Positions 3,979-52,778 of a stretch of 64,000 bases of DNA are shown piece by piece. Within the stretch, counting starts at the first letter, position 1; each line of letters starts with the position of its first letter. Position numbers and translations under genes: made by a program. Origin of the DNA: a virus (lineage: Duplodnaviria > Caudoviricetes); IMG/VR virus record IMGVR_UViG_2513237329_000013, positions 1-64,000 of that record; one strand, given 5' to 3'. The notes under the pieces were generated by a model. It was not told the origin of the DNA and did no database searches. It saw nothing but the letters and a program-made list of their open reading frames with translations.

Positions 3979-4380
3979 TTACTTGTCCTCCTTTGCTCCG
4001 ACTAAATTTGCAATATAAAGTAAAACATCAATATCAGCGTTGAAAAACTCATGATTCCAAAGCCAATAATCTTCATATTCTGGCCTTTTGTATTGACGGC
4101 ATTTTGGATCTGCCCAGACCTTATCCCATCGGATCTGATAATTACCATCACGCTTAGAAAGTGTTTTTTGAATGGTCTGAGTTAATTTGCCACGACGCAA
4201 ACCGCACTCGTCATCGTTTCTCGCAAAAAACTGATGAGCATTTTCACTTGTCGTATAACAAACAGGAAGACCGTTGTAATAAATAACACCGCAGATTTCT
4301 TCACAAATAGTTGTCGCTGGAATATTTACGCCACCGCAAATAGCAGTGTCCTTCAATCTTCTATGTACAATGTACTGCAT
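3979..4380 (-). CDS. Hypothetical protein directly downstream of the DGR RT
   Basis: 133 aa ORF overlapping the RT 3' end. Confidence 0.7.
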   Translation of the reverse strand: MQYIVHRRLKDTAICGGVNIPATTICEEICGVIYYNGLPVCYTTSENAHQFFARNDDECGLRRGKLTQTIQKTLSKRDGNYQIRWDKVWADPKCRQYKRPEYEDYWLWNHEFFNADIDVLLYIANLVGAKEDK

Positions 4381-5542
4381 CTTTTAATCTCTCCATTGCT
4401 CTGAAATTTTCTATGTTTTCTGCTGAAAAGCCATAGATAGCATAAAAGAGCCGTCGCAGCCTCAACACTCGTTGATGGTTTTGGTAGCTCTCTAAATACG
4501 CAAGCATTCCATTTACAGAAGTCCATAAATCCTCGTAGGACATTTCTCCGTTCTGGACTTTCTCGTAGAATGTTTTGATTTTGTGTCTGGTACGCTTGAA
4601 GCTTCCTCGATTACCAGTCACAATAACACGACCGCTTTCCGTCAAGATATATTTCGCCTTACAATAACGAAACGGTTTGGAGAGCGGAACAATTCTGGAT
4701 TTTTCTTTACTAATTGTCAGATCCAGTTCTGACGCTTTTTGAACAATGAGACGCATGATCTCCTTTGGGTCTTGATTCGGAGGAACTATGATATAGTAGT
4801 CATCCATATAATGACCAGCGCATTTAATAGAGAGCTGGCATTTAATGTAGTTATCGAGCGGAGATGGAAAAGCAATCATTTCAGCCTGACTTGGCTCAAC
4901 TCCAAGCGGCATACCTTTATCGCTGGTGCTTGATGCAACGATATCATCACCAAGCTTGCGTAAATCATAATCATGAATCAGCTTGTCATGACGAGCATAA
5001 ATAACGCGATGCGATGCACTCGGAAAGAATTGCTTGCAGTCTAAAAGGATTATGTTTCCATTTCTCCCATAGCGCTTAAAATGATAATGCAAGTCCTCAC
5101 GCAAAAGTCTTTTAGAGAAATGAAAACCTTTGCCTGGAAGACTTGCTCCGTTATTCCAAATCATATCTGGCAGATATAAAGGTAATAGGACTTTCTTTGT
5201 GTAAACCTTATGTATCTGCCTGTCTTGAATACGAGGTGCGTCAATTGGTCTTGTTTTGCCGCGCTCGGAGATAACAAAATGAACATATGGACATGGCTTC
5301 CACATTTTATCCAGCAGTAATTTTCTCCGCCGCGCCGTGCCAGAAAACAAGTGCATTTCAAATCTTTGTGCGCTATTCTTCCAGCGTACACCGTTGCAGC
5401 ATTGCTTTCCTGCTTTGTATAAGTCGCCATAGGAAAATACATCTGCCATTGTTCCTACAGCAAAGCTTCGTTCTTGTTTCTTGCGCCATCTCTCGGCTTT
5501 CCGTCTTTGGAATCTTGCCTCATGACGCTCTTTGCTTGTCAT
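4361..5542 (-). CDS. DGR reverse transcriptase
   Basis: ERGKTR.I, DRQIH, G..LG..SQ and YMDD motifs; next to TR and avd. Confidence 0.96.
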   Translation of the reverse strand: MTSKERHEARFQRRKAERWRKKQERSFAVGTMADVFSYGDLYKAGKQCCNGVRWKNSAQRFEMHLFSGTARRRKLLLDKMWKPCPYVHFVISERGKTRPIDAPRIQDRQIHKVYTKKVLLPLYLPDMIWNNGASLPGKGFHFSKRLLREDLHYHFKRYGRNGNIILLDCKQFFPSASHRVIYARHDKLIHDYDLRKLGDDIVASSTSDKGMPLGVEPSQAEMIAFPSPLDNYIKCQLSIKCAGHYMDDYYIIVPPNQDPKEIMRLIVQKASELDLTISKEKSRIVPLSKPFRYCKAKYILTESGRVIVTGNRGSFKRTRHKIKTFYEKVQNGEMSYEDLWTSVNGMLAYLESYQNHQRVLRLRRLFYAIYGFSAENIENFRAMERLKDAVHCT

Positions 5543-5775: not shown

Positions 5776-5900
5776 GAAATCGGGGGCGAGGCCATTGGAA
5801 TTCCTGGCGTTGTTGTTGTTCGCGTTGCCGTTCGTGTTCACATTGCAGAAGTTGTTGCTGTTGTTGTAGTACGGAGAACGCTCCCACCAATTCGCAGTGG
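5776..5900 (-). repeat. DGR template repeat (TR)
   Basis: AAC/AAT-rich 125 bp; aligns without gaps to 6540-6664 and, in part, to 46002-46106, with mismatches almost only at TR adenines. Confidence 0.97.
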
Positions 5901-5996: not shown

Positions 5997-6452
5997 TCAG
6001 CGGTCTTTGTCGCTCTTTAATGTATTTGTCAAAAGACTGTTTTCGGAATCAATCAGTTCACCAAGCGATTGCGCCATATTTTCAAGAATTTCTTTCGCTC
6101 TCGCTGGTTTAACTGGATTCCCGTTTGATGTTGTGAAACATCCCTCTGGATTCAGCATCATAATGTCGTAGCAATGAGACAACTCAACATCCAAAGCCAT
6201 CAACGCAGCTCTTGACTCTAAAAGGTGTTGCTTGCGCAATTCCTTTCTGGTGTGATCCGATGGAAAGATACTATTTGCCTTTTCTGCGTTCACAAGGACT
6301 TCTGACGCAAGATGTGATACATCGTTTGCCATCAATCTTGAAAATCTTGCAGAAAGTCGAGATAAGAAGTTAATCGTTTCCACATAAATCTTGTTTGCGG
6401 TATTTACAAACTCAGCTTTGCTTTCAGATCTATGTGCTTTTAATACCGACAT
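5997..6452 (-). CDS. avd: DGR accessory variability determinant (Avd-like four-helix protein)
   Basis: 151 aa helical ORF between target and TR; MSVLK..RSES..EF and ANSIFP...R motifs. Confidence 0.85.
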   Translation of the reverse strand: MSVLKAHRSESKAEFVNTANKIYVETINFLSRLSARFSRLMANDVSHLASEVLVNAEKANSIFPSDHTRKELRKQHLLESRAALMALDVELSHCYDIMMLNPEGCFTTSNGNPVKPARAKEILENMAQSLGELIDSENSLLTNTLKSDKDR

Positions 6453-6494
6453 AAATAGAACTCCTTTTTATATTTTGAAAAACAAAAGAAACCC

Positions 6495-6510
6495 GCCCTC
6501 TTTCGAGGGC
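6495..6510 (-). other. DGR target-recognition hairpin after VR1
   Basis: GCCCTC-GAAA-GAGGGC, 20 nt after the target stop codon. Confidence 0.85.
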
Positions 6511-6530
6511 AGGATTCTCTTGATACGGGA

Positions 6531-8561
6531 TTAGACGCGGAAAGCGGGGGCGAGGCCAAGGGAAAACCTGGCGCCGTCGTAGCCCGCGTCGCCGTTCGTG
6601 TCCACACCGCAGAAGTAGGTGCCGTTGTTGTAGAACGGAGAACGCTCCCACCAACGCGCAGTGGTAGAGGTGGAACTATCACGATACTTCACCTTAGAAT
6701 TACCATTCTTGAAGTATTGATACTGTGCCTGATAAGTCTGTTCTGTAGAATTCGCATAGCTTCTACTACCGAAAATCTCATACTCAGCCAATAGCGGCAA
6801 GTAGTCAACAGATGTGGTAACATTCGACGCTGTGTTTGAACCGCCGCCAACATTATCCGTATAGATCGTCATTGGCTGCATCACAGCACGAAGATCTGAC
6901 GGAAGAGCTGCCATTAGCGTATTCGCAACAGGATTTGTCGCAGTCGTAGATGTAGCATCGCCATCATTCGTATTCGTTGAGCCAAGCACATCGTAACGAA
7001 GATCGCAGCCTTTCCAGCCACCAGAGTTCGTATTTGAACTATGGTTCATGTTGAAATATTTCGTTCCGTCTGTGGAATAGCTGTTGTACTTACTGTCTGT
7101 CAAGCAAATATCAACACCATTAGTCAAAGCGGTCTTGAATGTACCAAAATCAATGCCAGTTGCACCATTATGATTAAATCCAAGGATAAAAACATAATAA
7201 GTTCCGCTGACTGACTTAGTACCAACTGTTCCACTCACAGAGACAGCCTTACGATCACCGACCGCCCAATAGCTTGCACCTGTTCCAGAGACACTGTGAA
7301 TAGCCGCCCAAGAGTTGTCATTCAGCGTAGCAAGAATGAACTCAGCTTTGACCGTGACAGTTTTGCTTGCGGGTGCGGTATAGTTCGTACCGGCAGTACA
7401 ACTAACTGTGATAGTAGCTTCTCCGTTTGTCTGATTGACATGAGAAACTGTAACCGTAGTCCCACTACGAGAAGCTGTCGCCACGCTTGTCTTATTAGAT
7501 GTAACACTCAAAGTACCATCATAATTTCCGCCGATTGTAAATGTATCAGTCAGCTTACTTAGGTTCAGCGTGATACTTGTCTTGCTTACAGTCAGCGTAC
7601 CAGTTGCCTTACCGATCTTCCACGAAACAGTCTTTGCCGTAATCGTACCGTCAGACCAGCAATAGTCATCTTTCGGCGTAAATGTAGCATTGTATGTACC
7701 GGCGTTTGTCCCAGATGTCGTTCCGCCAATCGTCATCTTGGATGTATCATAGTTACTCCAAGACGGGGACTGAGAGTTCTTATTGTATGTCAATGTACCA
7801 CTCTGGCTTGGAACAGTCGAAATCTTCAAACGATTTGGAACTCCGGTTATTCTATTACTTGTGTTTACATTAACTGCACCATCCGTAGAGATGGGGAAGA
7901 ATGAAATGTAATAGGTTGTTCCGTTAGTTAGGCCGGTAACAGTAAGTGCGGAATTCGCATACTGATTACGAGTGGTCACATTTAAGCTATAAGCCGCAGC
8001 GCTATCATCTGGAGAAGTTGCGTAGCTTCCAGCCTTAACGACAATCTTTGTGCTTGCCCATGTCGCAAGCGTCACGCCGTCCGAAACTACGGTCGCGGCT
8101 GGATCAGTCCACTTGATTGCAAGCTTTCCATTACCAGCGGCAACGGCGCTTGCACCAGAAATATTACCAACATTTACAGCAGCAGGAGTAACATTGAATT
8201 CGTCCTCCGCACTGTCCGTATATGTACCAGTGGTAGTGTATGGGAACAGCTTGTAGTAATACTTCACGCCGTTAGTCAATCCACTATCACAGAAATAGGC
8301 AGATTTATATTGATCTCGTGTCTTGCTGTCGAGAACGATTGTGCCATCTCTACGACTTGTCGGAGCAGAACCAGCCTTACGAACAAGGAGTGTTCCTCCC
8401 CATGCGGCAAGAGTAGAGCCGGCAACGACCATATCATCAGGATCAGTCCATTTTACATAGACCTTTCCAGCCGCCGCGAGCGTTGCAATTCCCGTAACAG
8501 CAGCAAGGGCAAGTCCGCCGCCAGATCCGCCGCCAGTTGGGAAATTAGAAATAATAGGCAT
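6531..8561 (-). CDS. DGR target 1: tail adhesin with two FnIII-like repeats, Ig-like domains and C-terminal CLec-like (DUF6273-like) domain
   Basis: Duplicated KWTDP..LA.W..KAGS..TR.QY..GLTNG..YY unit; Thr/Ser-rich; ends in VR (WWERSP...GLAPAFRV); last gene of fibre block. Confidence 0.9.
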   Translation of the reverse strand: MPIISNFPTGGGSGGGLALAAVTGIATLAAAGKVYVKWTDPDDMVVAGSTLAAWGGTLLVRKAGSAPTSRRDGTIVLDSKTRDQYKSAYFCDSGLTNGVKYYYKLFPYTTTGTYTDSAEDEFNVTPAAVNVGNISGASAVAAGNGKLAIKWTDPAATVVSDGVTLATWASTKIVVKAGSYATSPDDSAAAYSLNVTTRNQYANSALTVTGLTNGTTYYISFFPISTDGAVNVNTSNRITGVPNRLKISTVPSQSGTLTYNKNSQSPSWSNYDTSKMTIGGTTSGTNAGTYNATFTPKDDYCWSDGTITAKTVSWKIGKATGTLTVSKTSITLNLSKLTDTFTIGGNYDGTLSVTSNKTSVATASRSGTTVTVSHVNQTNGEATITVSCTAGTNYTAPASKTVTVKAEFILATLNDNSWAAIHSVSGTGASYWAVGDRKAVSVSGTVGTKSVSGTYYVFILGFNHNGATGIDFGTFKTALTNGVDICLTDSKYNSYSTDGTKYFNMNHSSNTNSGGWKGCDLRYDVLGSTNTNDGDATSTTATNPVANTLMAALPSDLRAVMQPMTIYTDNVGGGSNTASNVTTSVDYLPLLAEYEIFGSRSYANSTEQTYQAQYQYFKNGNSKVKYRDSSTSTTARWWERSPFYNNGTYFCGVDTNGDAGYDGARFSLGLAPAFRV
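6540..6664 (-). repeat. DGR variable region VR1
   Basis: 21 mismatches to TR over 125 bp by hand count, all at TR adenines. Confidence 0.97.
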
Positions 8562-41734: not shown

Positions 41735-41810
41735 TGGTGCGCCAGAAGGGATTTGAACCCTTGACTTGTCGCTTAAAAGGCGACTACTCTACCCACTGAG
41801 TTACTGACGC
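41735..41810 (-). tRNA. tRNA-Lys(TTT)
   Basis: Cloverleaf; GTCGC-CTTTTAA-GCGAC; CCA encoded. Confidence 0.93.
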
Positions 41811-41970
41811 TTATTCAGTTCCGGTTTGCACGGTTTCCCCACTTATTTTAACTCAGTTGGTAACTCCCATTAGAGTAGCAGTGCTTTCGGTCTGCCAGTC
41901 CGTCCGCTTTTCACGGAGGGCATACGTTCCCAATAGAAGCTCATAAAGAGCAAATTGCCATTTCTGGCTT

Positions 41971-42046
41971 TGGTGGGACAAGAAGGGATCGAACCTTCGA
42001 CGCGCAGGGCTTCAACCTGCCGCTCTTCCATCTGAGCTATCGTCCC
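41971..42046 (-). tRNA. tRNA-Phe(GAA)
   Basis: Cloverleaf; GCAGG-TTGAAGC-CCTGC; CCA. Confidence 0.92.
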
Positions 42047-42127
42047 ATATAGAACCATTATGTATAACAAACCTTTCTATCGGAAATGCTCTTTCGTGTA
42101 AACTGATAGAAAAGGAGGCTATGCGTC

Positions 42128-42415
42128 ATGGTTGAATTTTCTCAAAGATTAAAACAACTGCGCAAAGAAAAACATTTAACTCAGGCGCAGGTTGCAGAAA
42201 GAATAGGAGTAACAGCCTCAATGGTGTCCTCATACGAAACGGACATCCGACTCCCATCCTACGAAGTTCTTGTGAAAATCGCTACGCTATTCGGCGTGAC
42301 AGTAGACTATATGCTCTGCCGTGAAGATAAAAGATTTATCGACATATCCAGTCTGTCCGATGATGAAGCTGCGGTTGTGTGTGATATGATAAACATACTC
42401 CTAAAAAAGAAGTGA
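42128..42415 (+). CDS. XRE-family HTH transcriptional regulator
   Basis: RLKQLRKEKHLTQAQVAERIGVTASMVSSYE..R.P; AGGAGG RBS; hairpin terminator at 42421-42443. Confidence 0.92.
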   Translation: MVEFSQRLKQLRKEKHLTQAQVAERIGVTASMVSSYETDIRLPSYEVLVKIATLFGVTVDYMLCREDKRFIDISSLSDDEAAVVCDMINILLKKK

Positions 42416-42451
42416 CTACCAGCCGTCCATTCGGGCGGCTTTTGTCATGTG

Positions 42452-42544
42452 TGGCGACGGAGGTAGGATTTGAACCCACGGACGGCTCATCACCGCCTCT
42501 TGTTTTCAAGACAAGCGCCATAAACCAGACTCGACCACTCCGCC
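42452..42544 (-). tRNA. tRNA-Ser(TGA)
   Basis: Long variable arm; CTTGT-CTTGAAA-ACAAG; CCA. Confidence 0.92.
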
Positions 42545-42664
42545 ATATAACTGGCTTTCATATGTATTTCAACGGGAATAGCCATACCCATCCATCCTAA
42601 GCCGCCCATATGCAGGCCAGAATCATATGATCTCGCACCTCATAAAGCGTGGTGCGACACGCTT

Positions 42665-42751
42665 TGGTGAGGGAGGTTGGATTTGAACCAACTCAGCCCG
42701 AAGGCAACGGATTTACAGTCCGCCCCAGCTCTCCAACTCTGGCGCTCCCCC
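42665..42751 (-). tRNA. tRNA-Tyr(GTA)
   Basis: Long variable arm; loop CTGTAAA; CCA. Confidence 0.92.
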
Positions 42752-42786
42752 ATATAAGGCCGCATTAGCGACCATAAAAAACCACT

Positions 42787-42861
42787 TGGTACTGGCGGTG
42801 GGGATTGAACCCACGACCTTATGATTAAGAGTCATCTGCTCTTCCTCTGAGCTACGCCAGT
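42787..42861 (-). tRNA. tRNA-Lys(CTT)
   Basis: Loop CTCTTAA; CCA. Confidence 0.9.
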
Positions 42862-42958
42862 ATAAAACAAGACACTTGTAAGGAAAAAGAAAGGGGTAGT
42901 GATACAATGGAGGTTGTAATAGGATGTTTCATTAAACAAATCGCTGCAAGTGTCTTTT

Positions 42959-43033
42959 TGGCATGAGGTAAAGGAGTCGAACCCTTATTTACGGTTTTGG
43001 AGACCGCAGTGCTACCATTTACACCAACCTCAT
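42959..43033 (-). tRNA. tRNA-Trp(CCA)
   Basis: Loop CTCCAAA; CCA. Confidence 0.9.
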
Positions 43034-43038
43034 ATATG

Positions 43039-43115
43039 TGGCGACGTATACGGGACTTGAACCCGTGACCTCCGGCGTGACAGGCCGGTGTTCTACTCTT
43101 CTGAACTAATACGCC
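43039..43115 (-). tRNA. tRNA-Asp(GTC)
   Basis: CCGGC-CTGTCAC-GCCGG; CCA. Confidence 0.93.
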
Positions 43116-43117
43116 AT

Positions 43118-43360
43118 TTATTTATCCCAATCTACAAGAGGGTATAAGTCATATGGACTATCGGCAGTTGCGATCTTCTCAAAACCACCATCAACAATGC
43201 ACCATAATGTGTGCTTGTGTTTTTCTGGATTCTGAGAAATGCAATATTCCTTTCCAGATCTGGTCTTGCATAAAACGCCAGTTCCACAATCTGATGCTGG
43301 AATTTTCTTTACAACCTTTCGTTCTTTATCAACTGATAATAAACTTGCTTTTCGCGGCAT
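43118..43360 (-). CDS. Hypothetical protein within tRNA cluster
   Basis: GAGGTG RBS; fills the gap between tRNA-Glu and tRNA-Asp. Confidence 0.7.
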   Translation of the reverse strand: MPRKASLLSVDKERKVVKKIPASDCGTGVLCKTRSGKEYCISQNPEKHKHTLWCIVDGGFEKIATADSPYDLYPLVDWDK

Positions 43361-43380
43361 AGTTTACACCTCTTTCGTGC

Positions 43381-43457
43381 TGGTGATGCGTAAGGGATTT
43401 GAACCCTTAAATTCCGCCGTGAAAGGGCGGTGACTCTACCAATTCGTCCAACGCACC
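43381..43457 (-). tRNA. tRNA-Glu(TTC)
   Basis: CCGCC-CTTTCAC-GGCGG; CCA. Confidence 0.92.
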
Positions 43458-43470
43458 ATAATATAAACTG

Positions 43471-43716
43471 TCATACTCTGACATATCCAGGTTTCATTCT
43501 ACCAGTACAGACATCATGAACCTTACCTATATGATATTTCGCACCGCTTTTATCAACGGCGACACAAAACACGGCTTTCCGATCATTTGGAAACTTCACA
43601 GAATATGACCCATCCGTTTCAAGATATATCGGAATTGGAAAATAATCAGATATTGCACGAGCTTTCTGACGAGCCTCTTTTAATGAAGCGAGTCCCTTCA
43701 TTTTCTTTCTCTTCAT
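43471..43716 (-). CDS. Small basic hypothetical protein within tRNA cluster
   Basis: AAGGA RBS; fills the gap between tRNA-Gln and tRNA-Glu. Confidence 0.65.
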   Translation of the reverse strand: MKRKKMKGLASLKEARQKARAISDYFPIPIYLETDGSYSVKFPNDRKAVFCVAVDKSGAKYHIGKVHDVCTGRMKPGYVRV

Positions 43717-43732
43717 AGATTCTCATTCCTTA

Positions 43733-43807
43733 TGGCTGGGGTAGTTGGACTCGAACCAACGATACGGGAGTCAAAGTCCCGTGCCTTAACCACTTGGCTA
43801 TACCCCA
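43733..43807 (-). tRNA. tRNA-Gln(TTG)
   Basis: CGGGA-CTTTGAC-TCCCG; CCA. Confidence 0.93.
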
Positions 43808-43816
43808 ATATTGATT

Positions 43817-43893
43817 TGGTACGCCAGACAGGACTTGAACCCATGACCTAAAGATTAGAAATCTTTTGCTCTATCCGATTGAGCTACTGGCGC
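43817..43893 (-). tRNA. tRNA-Arg(TCT)
   Basis: AAAGA-TTTCTAA-TCTTT; CCA. Confidence 0.92.
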
Positions 43894-43896
43894 ATA

Positions 43897-43983
43897 TGGT
43901 GCTGGCGGTGGGACTTGAACCCACACGGTATCTCTACCAACGGATTTTGAGTCCGTCGCGTCTGCCGATTCCACCACGCCAGC
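43897..43983 (-). tRNA. tRNA-Leu(CAA)
   Basis: Long variable arm; loop CTCAAAA; CCA. Confidence 0.93.
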
Positions 43984-44064
43984 ATATTTTAATTGCAGAG
44001 CGCCTTGTTTGGCTGATCAGTTAAAAGTTGATTCCATAAATAAGGTTGCTGTATGCGCTCTTCG

Positions 44065-44147
44065 TGGTACGGGTAACAGGAATCGAACCTGCACGGTTGC
44101 CCACCAGATCCTAAATCTGGCGCGTCTGCCAGTTCCGCCATACCCGC
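44065..44147 (-). tRNA. tRNA-Leu(TAG)
   Basis: CCAGA-TTTAGGA-TCTGG; CCA. Confidence 0.92.
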
Positions 44148-44364
44148 ATATTTCCCATCGCAATTATATAGCCGTCGCCATACAACAAGAGATGCGACCA
44201 TCTCATACGACAGGTTATATTCCACTTGGTTCTACATTCACTGACGGGCTGTGGACTACCGTGAGATTACCAACTCTCAAAAGGTTCGACGATTATTGAA
44301 TGCCTGCGATCATAGCATTTCTCCAAACCAATTTGTCAAGTAGAGATGTCACAAATGTTCGGAG

Positions 44365-44441
44365 TGGAGTGGATAGCGGGATTTGAACCCGCACAGTCTG
44401 CTTGGAAGGCAGAAATGCTTGCCGTTAAACATCATACCCAC
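44365..44441 (-). tRNA. tRNA-Gly(TCC)
   Basis: TCTGC-CTTCCAA-GCAGA; U73; CCA. Confidence 0.9.
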
Positions 44442-44492
44442 ACAAAGAAGACAATCATTTTTTAGAGTCTTAGTTGTCTTAATAATGACTCG

Positions 44493-44569
44493 TGGTGTCC
44501 CGTGACGGAATCGAACCGCCGACCTCCTGCTTGTAAGGCAGATGCTCTAACCTGCTGAGCTAACCGGAC
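44493..44569 (-). tRNA. tRNA-Val(TAC)
   Basis: Loop CTTACAA; one G-G mismatch in acceptor stem; CCA. Confidence 0.88.
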
Positions 44570-44729
44570 AAATAGGCCAATTCAAGGCATTGGCCTTGCC
44601 TCCAACTCTATGCTGTTGGGTCGCAGCAAGGTTTTACTCTAAAATCTTGCAAAAAGTCATCACTGCCAGACATGACGGTTTCATTCCCACTACGGTTTAT
44701 AGAGTAACCACCTCTTATGTGGACGGGCA

Positions 44730-44804
44730 TGGGGGCGGAGGTTGGATTTGAACCAACGACCACCAGCTTATGAGGCTGGTAAGCTACCACTGCTACACTC
44801 CGCT
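44730..44804 (-). tRNA. tRNA-Met(CAT), initiator-like
   Basis: A1:C72 mismatch, fMet-like D arm, loop CTCATAA; CCA. Confidence 0.82.
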
Positions 44805-44869
44805 AAGTAAAATTGGCGCTGTCATCCATTCAGACAGTCATTAAGTCGCAGTACGTTGTGACACCAATA

Positions 44870-44944
44870 TGGCTGGAACGATAGGACTCGAACCTACAAC
44901 CCTCCGATTAACAGTCGGATGCTCTACCATTGAGCTACGAACCA
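44870..44944 (-). tRNA. tRNA-Asn(GTT)
   Basis: TCCGA-CTGTTAA-TCGGA; two U-U mismatches in acceptor stem; CCA. Confidence 0.87.
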
Positions 44945-45113
44945 ATATTCTCACCGAGACGCAACATCATTTACACCCAATAGATAAAATCAAACTCATC
45001 TTTTATGTATAGAAATTTGAAGTTGCTGTAAGCGTCTCTAACAACTGCAAGGCACTTATGTACTTTCTATTATCCGCAAGAAAATCCTCCAAAGTTGCTG
45101 CGTGTGCCTTTTA

Positions 45114-45189
45114 TGGTCTGAGTAGCTGGTCTCGAACCAGCGACCTCGTGATCCCAAATCACGCGCTCTACCTACTGAGCTATACCCAG
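45114..45189 (-). tRNA. tRNA-Pro(TGG)
   Basis: CGTGA-TTTGGGA-TCACG; CCA. Confidence 0.92.
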
Positions 45190-45199
45190 ATTTGCTTTT

Positions 45200-45251
45200 G
45201 AGAGAATCAGTAAAAGCAGCATCGCCACGAGCAGGCTTCTCTCCTGATGCC
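45200..45251 (-). ncRNA. Minimal HDV-like (theta-type) self-cleaving ribozyme
   Basis: P1 GGCAUC/GAUGCU with G1.U wobble, P2 GAGAGAA/UUCUCUC, P3 GCC/GGC with loop UGCUCGU, P1.1 GC/GC, no P4, J4/2 CUGA. Confidence 0.8.
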
Positions 45252-45252
45252 G

Positions 45253-45667
45253 TGGAGCAGAGGGGAATCGAACCCCTGTCCGAAATTCCTACATGAACAA
45301 AACATTCTTACGCAATAGATAACAATTTGCATTTTGTCCTAAGACGAGCTGCGTGGTGCTATCAACCAGCTCAGAGCCGCACCAGTTTTGCGACCTCCAC
45401 CACCTTATTTCTTTTCACAGTGATAAGGAAAACTGCAATGTCAGTCTGATTCTTTATTACCGCAGATGCTTACCCAGACTAAAAGTGCATCGTTTAAGCA
45501 TTCATCAACTGCAATTAAGCAGCAATACCCTCCATAACAGCATACAGAGCGGGATGAATCATAACCACAATAGAATCGTTGTCATTTCATTTTTGTTTGA
45601 GCCTTAGGCGGTCTCCATACCTGCGTATTTCGTCCTATCAAAACCCCGTCGAACCCATTACTGCCCC
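45253..45667 (-). ncRNA. ssrA: tmRNA
   Basis: 5' GGGGCAG..GGUUCGACGGGG; 3' GGGGUUCGAUUCCCCU-CUGCUCC-A with G3.U70; internal tag frame ending GCU GCU UAA. Confidence 0.93.
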
Positions 45668-45680
45668 ATATTTAATTTTA

Positions 45681-45756
45681 TGGTCGGAGTAGAAAGAGTC
45701 GAACTTTCGACCTCACGATTATCAGTCGTGCGCTCTACCTACTGAGCTATACTCCG
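45681..45756 (-). tRNA. tRNA-Ile(GAT)
   Basis: CACGA-CTGATAA-TCGTG; CCA. Confidence 0.92.
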
Positions 45757-45871: not shown

Positions 45872-45947
45872 TGGTGGAAACAATGAGAATCGAACTCACG
45901 ACCTCCTGCTTGCAAGGCAGGCGCTCTCCCAACTGAGCTATGTCCCC
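45872..45947 (-). tRNA. tRNA-Ala(TGC)
   Basis: G3.U70; loop CTTGCAA; CCA. Confidence 0.93.
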
Positions 45948-45953
45948 ATGTAA

Positions 45954-45973
45954 CCGTCCTCTTTCGAGGACGG
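45954..45973 (-). other. DGR target-recognition hairpin after VR2
   Basis: CCGTCCTC-GAAA-GAGGACGG; 6-bp core 20 nt after the stop codon, same as VR1. Confidence 0.85.
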
Positions 45974-45991
45974 ATTTTATTTGATTTGAGA

Positions 45992-46798
45992 TTAGGAGCT
46001 AAAAGCGGGGGCGAGGCCAAAAGAACCCCTGGCGTCGCCGGTGCCCGCGTTGCCGTTCGCGGACACACCGCAGAAGGTGCCGCTGGCGTCGTAGCACGGA
46101 GAACGCAACAGGTTACAACGACGATTTCCGTCATCATCTTCCTTATAGTAAGGAACATCCTCTTGCTTATAATATTCGTACCAATGCCCCTCGCCAGGCA
46201 TCGAATAGAAACAACGACCATACAGCTCTTTCTCGCTCTTGAGCCAAATCTTACAAACGCTCTTGATAATTTCCTTACTGCAATCGCCAGCGCTTGTAAG
46301 TTTAACAACCGGCTTAATAATTGCCTGCAACTCATCAGAGCAAAGAGAGAAGAACTCCGTATCCAGCCTACGTCTTACAACAGAAGCTTCATATCCGCCG
46401 CAATTCGTACTTTCGTCGTTCCACGACCAGTCCTCGTTGTAAACTCTGACCATATCCCAAGAGAGAGGTGCTTTTCCAGTCCCATCAGCAAGATCATCAT
46501 GGTTAAATCCGATAATCTGCCACACAGCAACAAATCCGTTCTTCATGTGGTCTTTCTTTTGTGCGCCAAGCGCAAATACTTCACGCGCCTTACCAGACAA
46601 TCCGATCTGATCAATTTCACCCCAAGAAAGATGGTTCAAATCCTTCAAAGGCATTGCAAGCGGCGCTTTACAAACAGTGTCAACAATATGTTCACTCGCC
46701 AAGCTATCATCGAAACTGAGAGTCACAGCATCGCCATCACAGACGATATTCATTGCCGAAAATTTGCTAAGATCCTTTGTTGCAATTTTGAACTGCAT
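45992..46798 (-). CDS. DGR target 2: stand-alone CLec-like (DUF6273-like) protein
   Basis: Shares LN..SW..I, I.GFNH, N.GG....R and L.A...P motifs with the target 1 C-terminal domain; ends in VR2. Confidence 0.9.
   Translation of the reverse strand: MQFKIATKDLSKFSAMNIVCDGDAVTLSFDDSLASEHIVDTVCKAPLAMPLKDLNHLSWGEIDQIGLSGKAREVFALGAQKKDHMKNGFVAVWQIIGFNHDDLADGTGKAPLSWDMVRVYNEDWSWNDESTNCGGYEASVVRRRLDTEFFSLCSDELQAIIKPVVKLTSAGDCSKEIIKSVCKIWLKSEKELYGRCFYSMPGEGHWYEYYKQEDVPYYKEDDDGNRRCNLLRSPCYDASGTFCGVSANGNAGTGDARGSFGLAPAFSS
46002..46106 (-). repeat. DGR variable region VR2 (remote)
   Basis: Gap-free match to TR 5777-5881; 23 mismatches at TR adenines and one silent C>T by hand count. Confidence 0.95.
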
Positions 46799-46842: not shown

Positions 46843-47471
46843 AAAATTCAATACTTGAATCATACCTATCATTGAGCCTTCGCTCTACCTCCATTACCTT
46901 CTCACAATGTTCAGCCACCAGGGAGATAAGTCTGAGCTTCAAGGAGCGACCTTTAACTTCTTACCCCAGCCTTACACAGCGAACTGTATTAGGCCAATTC
47001 CTGCGCGGGATTGTTTACCCGCAAATTTCACCGTTCGTTCAGAAAATTTGATAGTTTCATACAATTTCTTTTTCATCATATCGTATTAAAGATCAAACAC
47101 CAAAACTGTCCTACGGCTACTTTAACCGACGACTTTCGTTATAGTCGAGTTTCTTCGACATCAAGACAGGAGCGCATTGTTGGCATTTCCTCTGGTTGTA
47201 CTGGTTGCCACGCCAGTATCCTTGAGGATTATTCTCCACAGGAGCGTCTATTGCTGCGCCCGAAAGTTCCGTGCTTTTTGTAGCGATAACTCTTGGCAAC
47301 ACACATTTTCGTTGGCAGTTTCCGCCTCCCAGCAATACATCACTGCATCACTGCCGTCTGGACAATAAAAGGTATCCCTCGTAAATCCAGCGGGAACTAT
47401 TGTGCGTCTCGGAGTGCTGACACACTTTATTCACCGAGTTAATCATAAGCATGATTCAAATATTGAATTTT
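46843..47471 (-). ncRNA. Large ornate ncRNA, ROOL-like (about 630 nt)
   Basis: No credible ORF; about 30-bp terminal helix joins the two ends; many internal hairpins including a UUCG-capped one; size and tRNA-cluster context fit ROOL as I recall it. Confidence 0.68.
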
Positions 47472-47480
47472 CAAAGATCA

Positions 47481-47556
47481 TGGAGCTGGCGACAGGACTT
47501 GAACCCGCAACCTGATGATTACAAATCACCTGCGCTACCAATTGTGCCACGCCAGC
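47481..47556 (-). tRNA. tRNA-Thr(TGT)
   Basis: Loop TTTGTAA; CCA. Confidence 0.92.
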
Positions 47557-47589: not shown

Positions 47590-47618
47590 AGTATAACATA
47601 TAAGCACACGGTTGTCAA
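47590..47618 (-). promoter_or_regulatory. Near-consensus sigmaA promoter for the RNA cluster
   Basis: TTGACA-17-TATACT with extended TG, 33 nt upstream of tRNA-Thr. Confidence 0.8.
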
Positions 47619-50003: not shown

Positions 50004-52778
50004 TCATGCGACGCTACGCTGACGTCGTTTCTTCTCACGCTCATAATTGCGAATATGGATAGCCTGACAGTCATCGCAGCGCTTCTTATTTTTCACGATA
50101 CCGTCTACCTCAAACTCTTTTCCACAATCAATACACCGCAGTTTCTTTTTGCCGAGTGGGTGATATCCAGAGCAGCTCGTACATACCTTTTGCTGCGGTG
50201 AAAGAGGAACAAAACGCTCTCCACATTTCTTGCACTGAATAGAACCATCTGGGATATTTCGCTTGAGGTTTTCCAGAACGATATCACCAAAGCACATCCA
50301 GAAAACATTTTTCCTACGGCTATTCTTACTATGAAATAGATATTTCACAAGAATGTCGCAAACATCTAAGCGCTCAAGACAAATCTCGTCGAATTGCTTC
50401 AAGATATTGTCCCGAATATATGCAAAGTTCGAGTCATCATCATAAAAGCTGATCGAATAGCGATACTGCTTTTCCACATCATTGTACAGGTCAGTCACAG
50501 ACGATAGTAACTCAACCTGTTTCATCGGGTTACTAAGCATATACTGATATCTGAAGACACCAATATTCTTCGCGGCAAAAGACATCCGCTTATTAGGAAC
50601 GATGTGTTCAAGCTGATTCACAACACTATTGTTCATTCGCTGAACCTGAAATTTTGTTTTCTTTTTAGCGTGGATAAAAAAATGCGGCGCTTTCATACTC
50701 GTAATTCTTGCAAGACGAGCATTGATTTCATCTGGTCGAGTTGGCTTATACAGCGTCTTGGCATAGTCGATACAGAAGTTATTCTCCATACATAAGATTT
50801 TAATTGCTTCTATGTCAACATCCTCACCGTTCCAAATCTTCGTAATATCATTGCTAATAACACCGATATTGCCACCAGTCCATGCGGCGCGAAGCCCTTT
50901 GAAAATTTCCTCTGGTGTAATCGTAACAGCGCCAGCCTTTGCCATCTCGTAGTATAAAGGAACGATTCCTTCCATATTGCGCTCAGCAATAGACACAAGT
51001 AAGGAATCAGCGCATACGAGACTTTTATCTCCGTCGCAATCAAATTGTAGGATCTTTGAAATTAGATCATGACAGCTCGTATAGATAGCATTTTGAGAAA
51101 ACCACTTTTTCGTTGCACTGGTTACAACATTTTTACGAACAGCATGTTCACGATATAAGTGGGGTGAACGCAGACAGTCCAATTTACTCACTGTGCGATA
51201 AAGATAGCAAGACACCTCTCCATCTGCAAGCAAGCCAACAGGACTGCGATTTCCAAGAAACAGCCATTCGCAGAAAGCATAGAGATCTGGAATCAAGAAC
51301 ATATACTTTGCGCTCAAATCAATCTTTGCTGCTCTTGCCTCAGTAACAAGATTCTTCTTGATTTGCCGTAGCATCTCTTTTGTGTATGGGTCGGAGAGCA
51401 ATTCCGGATAGATACTAAGACACTCCTGAAAAGCATTCTTATTGCGATACTGTGTAGAAGCCCCGAACACATCCAGCATAGTATTCTTATCCGATGCAAT
51501 TTTAGCAATTTTGTCAATCGTCTTTCCAGCAAGCTGCTCAAGTTCATCTGTACTCAAATCTGTGAGTGTTTGAAGCATTTGATAGTTAAGCTTTGCATCA
51601 GGAATGAAGTCCTCTTCCTCATTACACTTACCGACAGTGCATCCATTTGCTAAAAACAAATCAATGTACTCTTGCCAATTCGCGTAATACTTGTACATCT
51701 TAAATTGACTTTTTGTAAAAATGACCTGGATACCCTCTGCGATTACATCATGTTCAAAACCATAGATGTCTGTTACCAAACCATGATTTACGGACGGATC
51801 GCGTTCGTTTGATTCTAAGATAAACTTATCAAACGGGAATACAGCAAGAAGCCCTTTTACCCACGGAAGACGAACCATAGTGTTTTTTGCATTACAAGAG
51901 GGAAGAACCATTCCGCAGCCATCCGTATGTGTAATTGGAATCTCCATATCTCTGCGCTCAACACTGTATGTTTTGTGATCAATAAAATCAACAGTTCCAC
52001 CAACCATCGTTTCCATATCATCTACAACGATAGTCTTTCTAATATCGAAATCTTCCCACAAATCAGTTGCGCTATTGCACAGTGCAAGATACGCCAGATA
52101 CTTATTGATATTGATTCCACCAAGCTCGTTGATTTTTTGAACGCTCAGTCCACACATAATGGTTTTTTGATACTTCTCCCAAACTCTTTCCTTAATGAAA
52201 ACAGTTTTCTTTGTTCTGATCTGTCCAGCAGATGCCGTAAAACAAATGTAGCGTTCTCCGTTAAAGGTATACCCATTTAGGATAAGATCTTCAATCACAT
52301 CGAAATAATATGTGCGAATAACCATGAAATCGTCATACAGCTTTCCTGTTTCCATGCCAAGTGTTCTTGTAAGCATCGACTCAAAAACAGAAATCACATT
52401 CTTATCAACCACATATTCAGTCCGTAACTCACGTTGCGAGCGATGTGCTTGAAGAAGTGATACAAGTTCAGACTTCTTAATCTTAATCATCTGGTTCGTA
52501 CCGCGAATTTCTTTCGCAATCTGTTTTACACGGGAACTATCCATCGCAACAGAAATCGGATCTGACTTTCCCATGCCATACAATTTACGAAACTGAGATT
52601 CAGCCTTCTCTTGTGTTATTTCTCCAGCACACAGCCGCTCAATAATTTCTCGCTCTGATTTTAATTTCGATTTTGAAGAGCAGTGCTTATTGATCTCAAC
52701 CTCAAGTGCCTTTTCTTCGTCGGTGTAAAACGCACTCGTGTCAAAACTATAAATATGGATTTGCCGATCAAGACTAAT
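50004..52778 (-). CDS. YonO-like single-subunit RNA polymerase with C-terminal Zn ribbons; probable ATT start
   Basis: TASAGQIR.KK, TDGCG, RLPWVKG, RSPH and catalytic DCDGD; frame stays open 65 codons upstream of the listed TTG. Confidence 0.88.
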   Translation of the reverse strand: MSLDRQIHIYSFDTSAFYTDEEKALEVEINKHCSSKSKLKSEREIIERLCAGEITQEKAESQFRKLYGMGKSDPISVAMDSSRVKQIAKEIRGTNQMIKIKKSELVSLLQAHRSQRELRTEYVVDKNVISVFESMLTRTLGMETGKLYDDFMVIRTYYFDVIEDLILNGYTFNGERYICFTASAGQIRTKKTVFIKERVWEKYQKTIMCGLSVQKINELGGININKYLAYLALCNSATDLWEDFDIRKTIVVDDMETMVGGTVDFIDHKTYSVERRDMEIPITHTDGCGMVLPSCNAKNTMVRLPWVKGLLAVFPFDKFILESNERDPSVNHGLVTDIYGFEHDVIAEGIQVIFTKSQFKMYKYYANWQEYIDLFLANGCTVGKCNEEEDFIPDAKLNYQMLQTLTDLSTDELEQLAGKTIDKIAKIASDKNTMLDVFGASTQYRNKNAFQECLSIYPELLSDPYTKEMLRQIKKNLVTEARAAKIDLSAKYMFLIPDLYAFCEWLFLGNRSPVGLLADGEVSCYLYRTVSKLDCLRSPHLYREHAVRKNVVTSATKKWFSQNAIYTSCHDLISKILQFDCDGDKSLVCADSLLVSIAERNMEGIVPLYYEMAKAGAVTITPEEIFKGLRAAWTGGNIGVISNDITKIWNGEDVDIEAIKILCMENNFCIDYAKTLYKPTRPDEINARLARITSMKAPHFFIHAKKKTKFQVQRMNNSVVNQLEHIVPNKRMSFAAKNIGVFRYQYMLSNPMKQVELLSSVTDLYNDVEKQYRYSISFYDDDSNFAYIRDNILKQFDEICLERLDVCDILVKYLFHSKNSRRKNVFWMCFGDIVLENLKRNIPDGSIQCKKCGERFVPLSPQQKVCTSCSGYHPLGKKKLRCIDCGKEFEVDGIVKNKKRCDDCQAIHIRNYEREKKRRQRSVA

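Follow-up and report, generated by a model that had tools for sequence, protein, structure and literature searches.

A stand-alone lectin-like gene in a phage RNA island as a probable remote target of the single diversity-generating retroelement of an SPbeta-like prophage

The first 64,000 nucleotides of the IMG/VR virus record IMGVR_UViG_2513237329_000013 (Duplodnaviria; Caudoviricetes), hereafter the window, carry a diversity-generating retroelement (DGR) with its reverse transcriptase (RT), its template repeat (TR) and an adjacent target gene that ends in a variable repeat (VR1), and, within an island of RNA genes far from this cassette, a stand-alone gene that ends in a further variable repeat (VR2). 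We propose that VR2, although distant from the cassette, is a true target of the one DGR in the prophage, competent now and repeatedly rewritten in the past, and that the gene product has a C-type-lectin-like fold of the DUF6273 family; we put the probability of this reading at roughly 0.85. Coordinates of all features are collected in Table 1.

The TR, both VRs, their hairpins and the RNA island all lie on the minus strand. VR2 (46106..46002) aligns to the TR (5881..5777) without gaps and with 24 mismatches, 23 of which fall at the 34 TR adenines (15 A>G, 5 A>C, 3 A>T), the other one being a silent TCC>TCT change; the binomial P for this adenine bias is 9e-11. An earlier inspection of the DNA made from the letters alone (the sequence-only reading) had described just such a gapless alignment with 23 adenine-specific changes and one silent C>T, and all of it was reproduced here. 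The silent change (window 46022-46027, minus-strand codon TCT) recurs in VR2 of one related locus (L002), which may reflect a recurrent RT error or a shared ancestral state. In the whole 127,251-bp genome the repeat occurs in three copies only, the TR, VR1 at 0.66 kb from it and VR2 at 40.1 kb. VR1 and VR2 are in the same reading frame, and 12 codons are altered in both; since the new codon is identical in only three of these 12, one of the three being a fixed GAT>GCT at the 3' end, the two repeats were diversified separately, in agreement with the earlier claim that VR2 was not copied from VR1. The TR offers 19 variable codons of the AAY type, which correspond to ~1e19 possible proteins with stop codons unreachable.

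The recognition signals expected of a DGR target accompany VR2 as well. Both VRs terminate in GGCCTCGCCCCCGCTTT, with ...GATTT as the TR counterpart. The base following the GC-rich motif GGCCTCGCCCCCG is C in every VR (-C-TTT) and A in every TR (-A-TTT) of two lineages, and therefore represents the difference between the initiation of mutagenic homing site (IMH) and its template counterpart, IMH*, and not a product of mutagenesis. Each VR is followed by a TAA stop codon, 20 nt and a GAAA-loop hairpin, and the two stems differ by a compensatory pair (GCCCTC-GAAA-GAGGGC after VR1, GTCCTC-GAAA-GAGGAC after VR2); the shared spacing, the loop and the compensatory pair are as the sequence-only reading gave them. 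No U-tract is present after the VR2 hairpin. A hairpin with a 4-nt loop, mostly GAAA, and with compensatory stem changes is found past the stop codon of every family member examined. According to the rule established for phage DGR targets, a GC-rich stem of 7-10 bp with a GRNA loop lies 4-34 bp after the VR, and in Bordetella phage BPP-1 replacement of the GAAA loop by CTTT dropped homing to near background (PMC3240598); the VR2 hairpin, with its 8-bp stem and GAAA loop 28 nt past the VR, conforms to this rule.

That VR2 is a second, non-adjacent target of the same TR, as had been supposed, finds strong support in comparisons among relatives. Seven IMG/VR contigs encode a 90-93% identical protein, and among them 37 of 105 VR sites are variable, almost all at TR-adenine positions, versus 73 of 692 sites elsewhere in the gene. 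One of these relatives (G001) has a TR identical to that of the window, and relative to it its VR2 shows 20 A-changes and its VR1 15, with no non-A change in either. Another (G005) has a TR with three lineage-specific non-adenine differences, all of which are present in its VR2 (13 A-changes, 0 non-A). A lineage with a 58% identical protein differs in its IMH but not in its layout, VR2 and TR lying ~41 kb apart; over 14 of its contigs ~44 VR sites are variable versus 18 of 690 outside the VR, and in one of its genomes (G009) VR2 carries the non-A changes of its own TR. As read from the sequences, the TR-specific non-A changes in VR2 of G005 and G009 are the signature of copying from the resident TR. 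Clusters drawn at 90% identity round two family members contain 3,550 and 4,169 distinct sequences, and the 14 members sampled from each are all distinct, with up to 10 residues per AAY-derived position and no variation at fixed positions. A gut-metagenome contig differs from the window at ~18 positions within 46013-46087 and at 12 over ~360 nt of scaffold (46226-46586). The scaffold dN/dS, the ratio of nonsynonymous to synonymous substitution rates, is 0.04-0.09, and the protein outside the VR is thus under strong purifying selection. The sequence-only reading had suggested looking for adenine-specific polymorphism in mapped reads or related phages and had named an invariant VR2 across populations as an outcome that would speak against it; in related phages and metagenomes VR2 turned out to be hypervariable at adenine positions.

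Several points weigh against this reading or parts of it. VR2 is identical in two source-isolate assemblies; these are probably both the source strain and are not independent, and the identity is no evidence of inactivity. The read comparison used contigs only, which conceal minor variants, and within-sample polymorphism is invisible to it. Retrohoming into VR2 is deduced by comparison and not directly observed, and the co-transcription of the VR2 gene with the ROOL RNA upstream of it, considered below, is argued from spacing and an absent terminator only. In two relatives (G002 and G003) VR2 is mismatched to the resident TR, with 8 and 5 non-A mismatches. These genomes (loci L002/L042 and L003/L043) have a divergent cassette type, seen in the TR 5' end, VR1 and the IMH GGCGTCGCCCC, and their VR2 retains the sequence and IMH of the other type; they are natural recombinants in which the cassette was swapped and the remote VR2 appears orphaned. 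The VR2/TR mismatch in them implies that TR coupling can be lost by recombination.

Could VR2 then be a relic, diversified formerly and no longer a working target in the source genome? The uncoupling in G002 and G003, the same VR2 in the two source-isolate assemblies and the one non-A mismatch would all be compatible with it. In the source genome, however, the IMH-like end and the hairpin are present, 70 of 71 non-A positions agree with the TR, and the RT, the TR and the accessory gene are intact, while the close relative with the identical TR has a different VR2 that departs from it at adenines alone; we regard a relic as very improbable. A resemblance by chance, or a recent copy of VR1 made without the DGR, could appeal to the shared 105-nt sequence and nothing else, and is refuted by the size of the adenine bias, by a flanking scaffold just 25% identical to the VR1 protein, by the few doubly changed codons with the same new codon and by the co-variation of VR2 with the TR across lineages.

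The diversification of VR2 would follow the steps of the established DGR model. The RT (5542..4361) and the accessory protein would copy TR RNA to cDNA, with random bases placed opposite template adenines, and the cDNA would overwrite any segment that has a GC-rich IMH-like end and a GC-rich GAAA-loop hairpin. Sequence and comparison show that there is one TR and one RT, that VR1 and VR2 are two such segments, each overwritten independently and repeatedly at adenines, and that the variable residues are displayed on a conserved lectin scaffold; up to ~1e19 variants of the last ~35 residues per target could result.

The VR2 protein matches Pfam family PF19789 (DUF6273) over residues 123-267 (E 3.3e-9; 37.3 bits versus a gathering cut-off of 23.5), and so do all 119 listed homologues with Pfam data. 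In its AlphaFold2 (AF2) model, built on a 41-sequence alignment with a predicted local distance difference test score (pLDDT) of 89, an N-terminal stretch of 30 residues with a helix and a beta-hairpin (pLDDT ~68) and a disordered linker (32-47) are followed by a single globular domain (50-268, pLDDT >93). Among solved structures the best fold match is the N-terminal DUF6273 domain of PDB entry 9qa6 (Z 16.9); further matches include the Bacteroides fimbrial protein 4eps, the C-terminal domain of Legionella Lcl, the DGR protein TvpA (Z 7.3), many C-type lectin domains (Z 5-6) and TaqVP (Z 4.6). According to the model, VR2 occupies the C-terminus of a C-type-lectin-like fold. Since BLASTP pairs residues 51-268 with residues 410-674 of the VR1 protein (25% identity, E 1e-14), the whole domain is paralogous between the two targets, well beyond the VR. 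The AF2 model of the VR1 protein is poor (pLDDT 57, lectin part ~30) because its alignment is shallow, and we make no claim on its C-terminal fold from it; its N-terminal 400 aa are modelled as beta-sandwich repeats (23-406, low confidence). A tblastn search of the whole genome with the N-terminal 50 aa of the VR2 protein and the N-terminal 400 aa of the VR1 protein found no common anchor module. There is no stalk in the AF2 model of the VR2 protein and no hydrophobic segment in its sequence (maximum 19-residue Kyte-Doolittle mean 0.9), which bears out the earlier description of a lectin-like protein without stalk, signal peptide or transmembrane segment. Homologues (280 matches at 44-95% identity) are nearly all 230-290 aa long, and a search for fused or longer relatives found no close fused form, only distant DUF6273 surface proteins of at most 38% identity; an ESM Atlas search returned sub-threshold leads only (0.77-0.78). 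The hosts named on related records are Clostridia, namely Clostridiales bacterium CCNA10, Oscillospiraceae, Flintibacter muris and Lachnospiraceae.

In every locus examined the orthologues of the VR2 gene are stand-alone and away from the RT, and none lies <4 kb from RT or tail genes. The order ROOL, 52-57 nt, ATG, hairpin, tRNA-Ala, tRNA-Ile, tmRNA is kept in the 58-64% identical lineages and in CCNA10, and the spacing itself in L001, L012, L033 and L054. ROOL adjacency is missing in L027/L028/L039, L031, L035, L036 and L038. In L027 and L028, where ROOL is absent, the orthologue directly precedes the tmRNA, and a RAGATH-16 RNA lies ~3.4 kb upstream of the target gene (L027 2561-2631, L028 164-234). 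In the 45-48% identical lineage (L031, L032 and L037, and by position L058 and L061) the target stands directly upstream of a gene for a 730-aa tRNA-repair-like fusion of an AAA_33 kinase, a metallophosphatase and a T4 RNA-ligase-1 domain, with one tRNA ~1.7 kb upstream of the target gene. The orthologue lies between recombination genes and a primase-helicase in L036 and probably in L055 and L057, and beside repressor or integrase genes in L035 and L038. In Clostridiaceae bacterium strain 9 the orthologue at L057 4953-5803 appears as two overlapping open reading frames (ORFs) of 210 and 119 aa, perhaps through a frameshift; L058, 45% identical, is another copy in that genome.

Where the VR2 protein acts is a separate question. 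We tentatively favour, at slightly less than even odds, a soluble accessory ligand-binder that would act outside the cell, docked on the virion via its N-terminal beta-hairpin or free after lysis, because an extracellular role is known or proposed for those DUF6273 and C-lectin relatives that are published or solved: tentaclins are proposed to be phage receptor binders (PMC10743442), and the ThomasA IgA peptidase is a secreted protein (PMC12402451). The fimbrial nature of the fold neighbour 4eps and the paralogy of the entire domain with the C-terminus of the VR1 protein point the same way. On the other side of the balance, and against a virion role in particular, the gene lies outside the tail module in the source genome and among replication, recombination, tRNA-repair or lysogeny-control genes in all other lineages examined, and no other ORF of the genome has a match to the N-terminal 50 aa. 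If the protein were simply an ordinary virion component, a receptor-binding accessory subunit attached through its beta-hairpin to some protein of the tail or capsid and happening to be encoded outside the tail module, one could cite besides the paralogy of residues 51-268 the structural neighbours in BFVD, which by name include a tail-collar fibre and a receptor-binding protein, the position of the gene, which shares its strand with the terminase/portal/tail block and precedes it by 4.3 kb with the tRNA array intervening, and the proposal that stand-alone DUF6273 targets are Mtd-like (PMC10743442). Yet the gene is never beside tail genes in six different genomic contexts, the model shows neither a beta-prism nor a beta-sandwich to anchor it as in Mtd, nothing like the N-terminus is encoded elsewhere in the genome, and close fused forms are lacking, longer relatives being no more than 38% identical; we consider this version on the unlikely side.

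A cytoplasmic binder is in our estimate less likely than an extracellular one and rather improbable in itself, although the consistently non-structural gene context keeps such a role under consideration. One version, in line with the intracellular binder of the sequence-only reading, would be a hypervariable lectin-fold protein expressed with the RNA island, with host-defence, translation or competing-phage proteins or the ROOL particle as ligands. The absence of a signal peptide and a transmembrane segment would suit it, as would a host-type promoter match upstream, the tight and conserved ROOL-gene spacing, and the orthologues that adjoin the Pnkp/RNA-ligase tRNA-repair-like gene, replication or recombination modules or repressor genes. 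A metatranscriptome contig over the 5' part of the gene and ROOL is a further, weak hint, DNA carry-over being possible, and DGR-diversified C-lectin domains are described in putative bacterial conflict systems (PMC10907252). On the other hand, gene context is the sole support for this version, ROOL adjacency is lineage-specific, and extracellular action is known or proposed for each DUF6273 or C-lectin relative whose context is published or solved. Phage virion proteins have no signal peptides, and the missing signal peptide is equally expected of a virion protein. We take this intracellular version to be improbable, and still more doubtful is its fullest form, in which the DGR would diversify a cytoplasmic non-virion protein made together with ROOL, tRNAs and tmRNA as a repertoire of anti-defence or anti-phage binders or as a partner of the ROOL nanocage. 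If true, it would account for the family's consistent place among replication, tRNA-repair and lysogeny genes.

Table 1. Features of the two targets, the DGR cassette and the RNA island (window coordinates)
Feature	Position	Strand	Remarks
VR2 target gene	45992..46798	-	268 aa; ATG 46798, in-frame GTG 46807; DUF6273 / C-type-lectin-like
VR2, variable repeat	46002..46106	-	encodes last ~35 residues of the 268-aa protein
GC-rich IMH-like motif GGCCTCGCCCCCG	46006..46018	-	3' end of VR2
VR2 hairpin CCGTCCTC-GAAA-GAGGACGG	45954..45973	-	8-bp stem; 28 nt past VR end
Template repeat (TR)	5777..5881	-	105 nt, 34 adenines
VR1	6541..6645	-	19 A-specific changes vs TR, 0 non-A
VR1 hairpin CCTGCCCTC-GAAA-GAGGGCGGG	6492..6513	-	followed by a T-run
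Cassette-adjacent target gene (VR1 protein)	6531..8561	-	676 aa; C-terminal DUF6273 domain (Pfam)
Accessory gene between VR1 and TR	5997..6452	-	151 aa, helical; Avd position; phrog_30516 (function unknown)
DGR reverse transcriptase	4361..5542	-	393 aa; Pfam RVT_1, phrog_1423; motifs LGVEPSQ and YMDD
Sigma-70-like promoter match	47590..47618	-	TTGACA-17-TATACT with TG, 11/12; consensus match only
tRNA-Thr	47481..47556	-	between promoter-like site and ROOL
ROOL RNA	46855..47462	-	Rfam RF03087, 394.1 bits vs gathering threshold 99.1, model 1-574
tRNA-Ala(UGC)	45872..45947	-	begins 6 nt past VR2 hairpin
Rest of RNA island	41735..45756	-	18 tRNAs and tmRNA (45667..45250)

The IMG/VR record is a single virus sequence of 127,251 bp, classed as a provirus and 96% complete, and the window is its first half. 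Given a large serine recombinase at the record end (genome position 126178-126561) and the presence of the element in isolate assemblies of ~5.3-5.5 Mb, the element is an SPbeta-like prophage, 127 kb long; its host is a gut Clostridia bacterium. The window also holds an 859-aa ORF (50004-52583) with a PF05183 (RdRP family) match, like the SPbeta single-subunit RNA polymerase YonO, which together with the recombinase marks the element as SPbeta-like. The RT carries LGVEPSQ at residue 213 and YMDD at residue 245, the hallmark pair of the DGR clade ([ILV]GxxxSQ and YxDD). A Pfam search with the 151-aa accessory ORF gave no match, and we call it Avd-like by position alone. A homologue of the VR1 protein is named in Hominicoprocola fusiformis. 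The N-terminus of the VR1 protein (window 8561..8440) is Gly-rich and then has an Ala-rich, moderately hydrophobic segment before the beta-sandwich repeats, with a maximum 19-residue hydropathy of 1.6, a candidate membrane anchor or signal-like segment.

On the minus strand the gene order runs from the YonO-like RNA polymerase through an exonuclease, HU, tRNA-Met, the promoter-like site, tRNA-Thr and ROOL, whose 3' end is 56 nt upstream of the ATG, to the VR2 gene, then through tRNA-Ala, the 18 tRNAs and tmRNA to the terminase, the portal, a tape-measure-sized 2,606-aa ORF and a minor tail/fibre protein, and finally to the VR1 target, the accessory gene, the TR, the RT and an endolysin. The gene thus sits among RNA genes, as the sequence-only reading had it. 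Of the sigmaA promoter proposed there, one good sigma-70-like site (47618..47590) stands, upstream of tRNA-Thr and ROOL; no promoter of conserved spacing was found between ROOL and the ATG, where a TTGAAT/TTGATT motif was considered as a gene-specific promoter and rejected, its spacing to -10-like hexamers not being conserved. Most likely the VR2 gene would be co-transcribed with tRNA-Thr and ROOL from this promoter-like site. Because the VR2 hairpin, unlike that of VR1, has no U-tract, transcription might continue past it into the tRNA genes, and RNase P, cutting at tRNA-Ala, would perhaps leave an mRNA that ends in the VR2 hairpin. A metatranscriptome contig over 46614-46809, the 5' part of the VR2 gene, at a depth of 11 gives a weak hint of transcription, with DNA carry-over possible. 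Another gut metatranscriptome contig, of 584 nt, covers window 46888-47427 of ROOL at a depth of 46 with sequencing adapters at both ends, and gives a hint of a distinct, abundant RNA a little shorter than the stretch matched by the Rfam model (46855-47462), again with DNA carry-over possible. A blastn search of GenBank phages with the ROOL sequence gave no match. A match to phage phAss-1 was dropped, as it involved tRNA genes alone; the phAss-1 paper makes no mention of a DGR, ROOL or tmRNA.

Several aspects of this arrangement deserve attention beyond the prophage itself. Large DGR surveys admit missing RT-distant targets (PMC8144416), because metagenome contigs are short, and the present case shows that such a target can rank among the most variable gene families of gut metagenomes, with thousands of variants per 90% cluster. 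Its placement is long conserved, with orthologues of 58% identity retaining the ~40-kb layout. One TR with two recognition sites, plus recombinants whose remote site has lost its matching TR, amounts to a natural test of trans-targeting. Should the protein prove to be non-virion, phage DGR biology would extend past receptor binding. ROOL has no known function or protein partner (PMC12286853), and the VR2 gene, at a fixed 52-57 nt from ROOL in several lineages, encodes a candidate for such a partner.

Lastly, the system needs to be set beside those described before. In many phage-associated DGRs one adjacent target is accompanied by a non-adjacent one within 50 kb in the same prophage (Wu et al. 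2018, PMC5758913), and the present system resembles these in having one RT and one TR, an adjacent target plus a second <50 kb away, and A-only differences from the TR; it differs in that the VR2 target lies within a ROOL/tRNA/tmRNA island and belongs to a large orthologous family that is RT-non-adjacent in every locus examined. Faecalibacterium phage FP_Toutatis (Toutatisvirus), in which a second VR gene lies 17,480 nt upstream of the TR (Egorov and Atkinson, bioRxiv 10.1101/2024.10.15.618418), is likewise a gut Clostridia phage with two DUF6273 targets and one TR, and its remote target, a core-genome gene of unknown function with a C-terminal VR, resembles the VR2 gene. The two differ in phage type, genome size and distance (40.1 kb here), and no RNA island is reported for FP_Toutatis; the likeness is one of layout and domain. 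Small gut myoviruses have stand-alone DUF6273 targets in nd4_tgt2 and nd12_tgt2 (Baykov et al. 2023, PMC10743442), which are also single-domain C-lectin-like proteins with a C-terminal VR (234-294 aa) and also the second of two DGR targets, the other having Ig-like domains. Theirs lie inside the cassette of 33-47-kb phages, in contrast to a VR2 gene 40 kb off in a 127-kb SPbeta-like prophage. The VR2 protein has no Ig-like domain and in this respect is not a tentaclin, and the beta-sandwich repeats of the VR1 protein, N-terminal to its lectin domain in the low-confidence AF2 model, stand in the reverse of the tentaclin order. The BPP-1 DGR (Guo et al. 2011, PMC3240598) likewise mutates adenines, and its VR too has a GC-rich IMH at the 3' end, is followed by a GC-rich GAAA-loop hairpin and forms the C-terminal end of a C-lectin fold, whereas Mtd, the sole and in-cassette target there, contains beta-prism and beta-sandwich domains. 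Both are missing from the VR2 protein, in whose AF2 model only the 30-residue beta-hairpin region and the disordered linker precede the lectin domain, in place of an Mtd-like N-terminal anchor. The N-terminal DUF6273 domain in 9qa6, from the IgA peptidase of Thomasclavelia ramosa (PMC12402451), superposes with a root-mean-square deviation of 2.1 A over 173 residues at 18% identity, but is part of a secreted, probably sortase-anchored bacterial protease for which a DGR is not reported (PMC12402451). Publications thus already describe both phage DGRs that pair an adjacent with a non-adjacent target and DUF6273 targets that stand alone; it is the setting in an RNA island that is unusual, and this setting is conserved.

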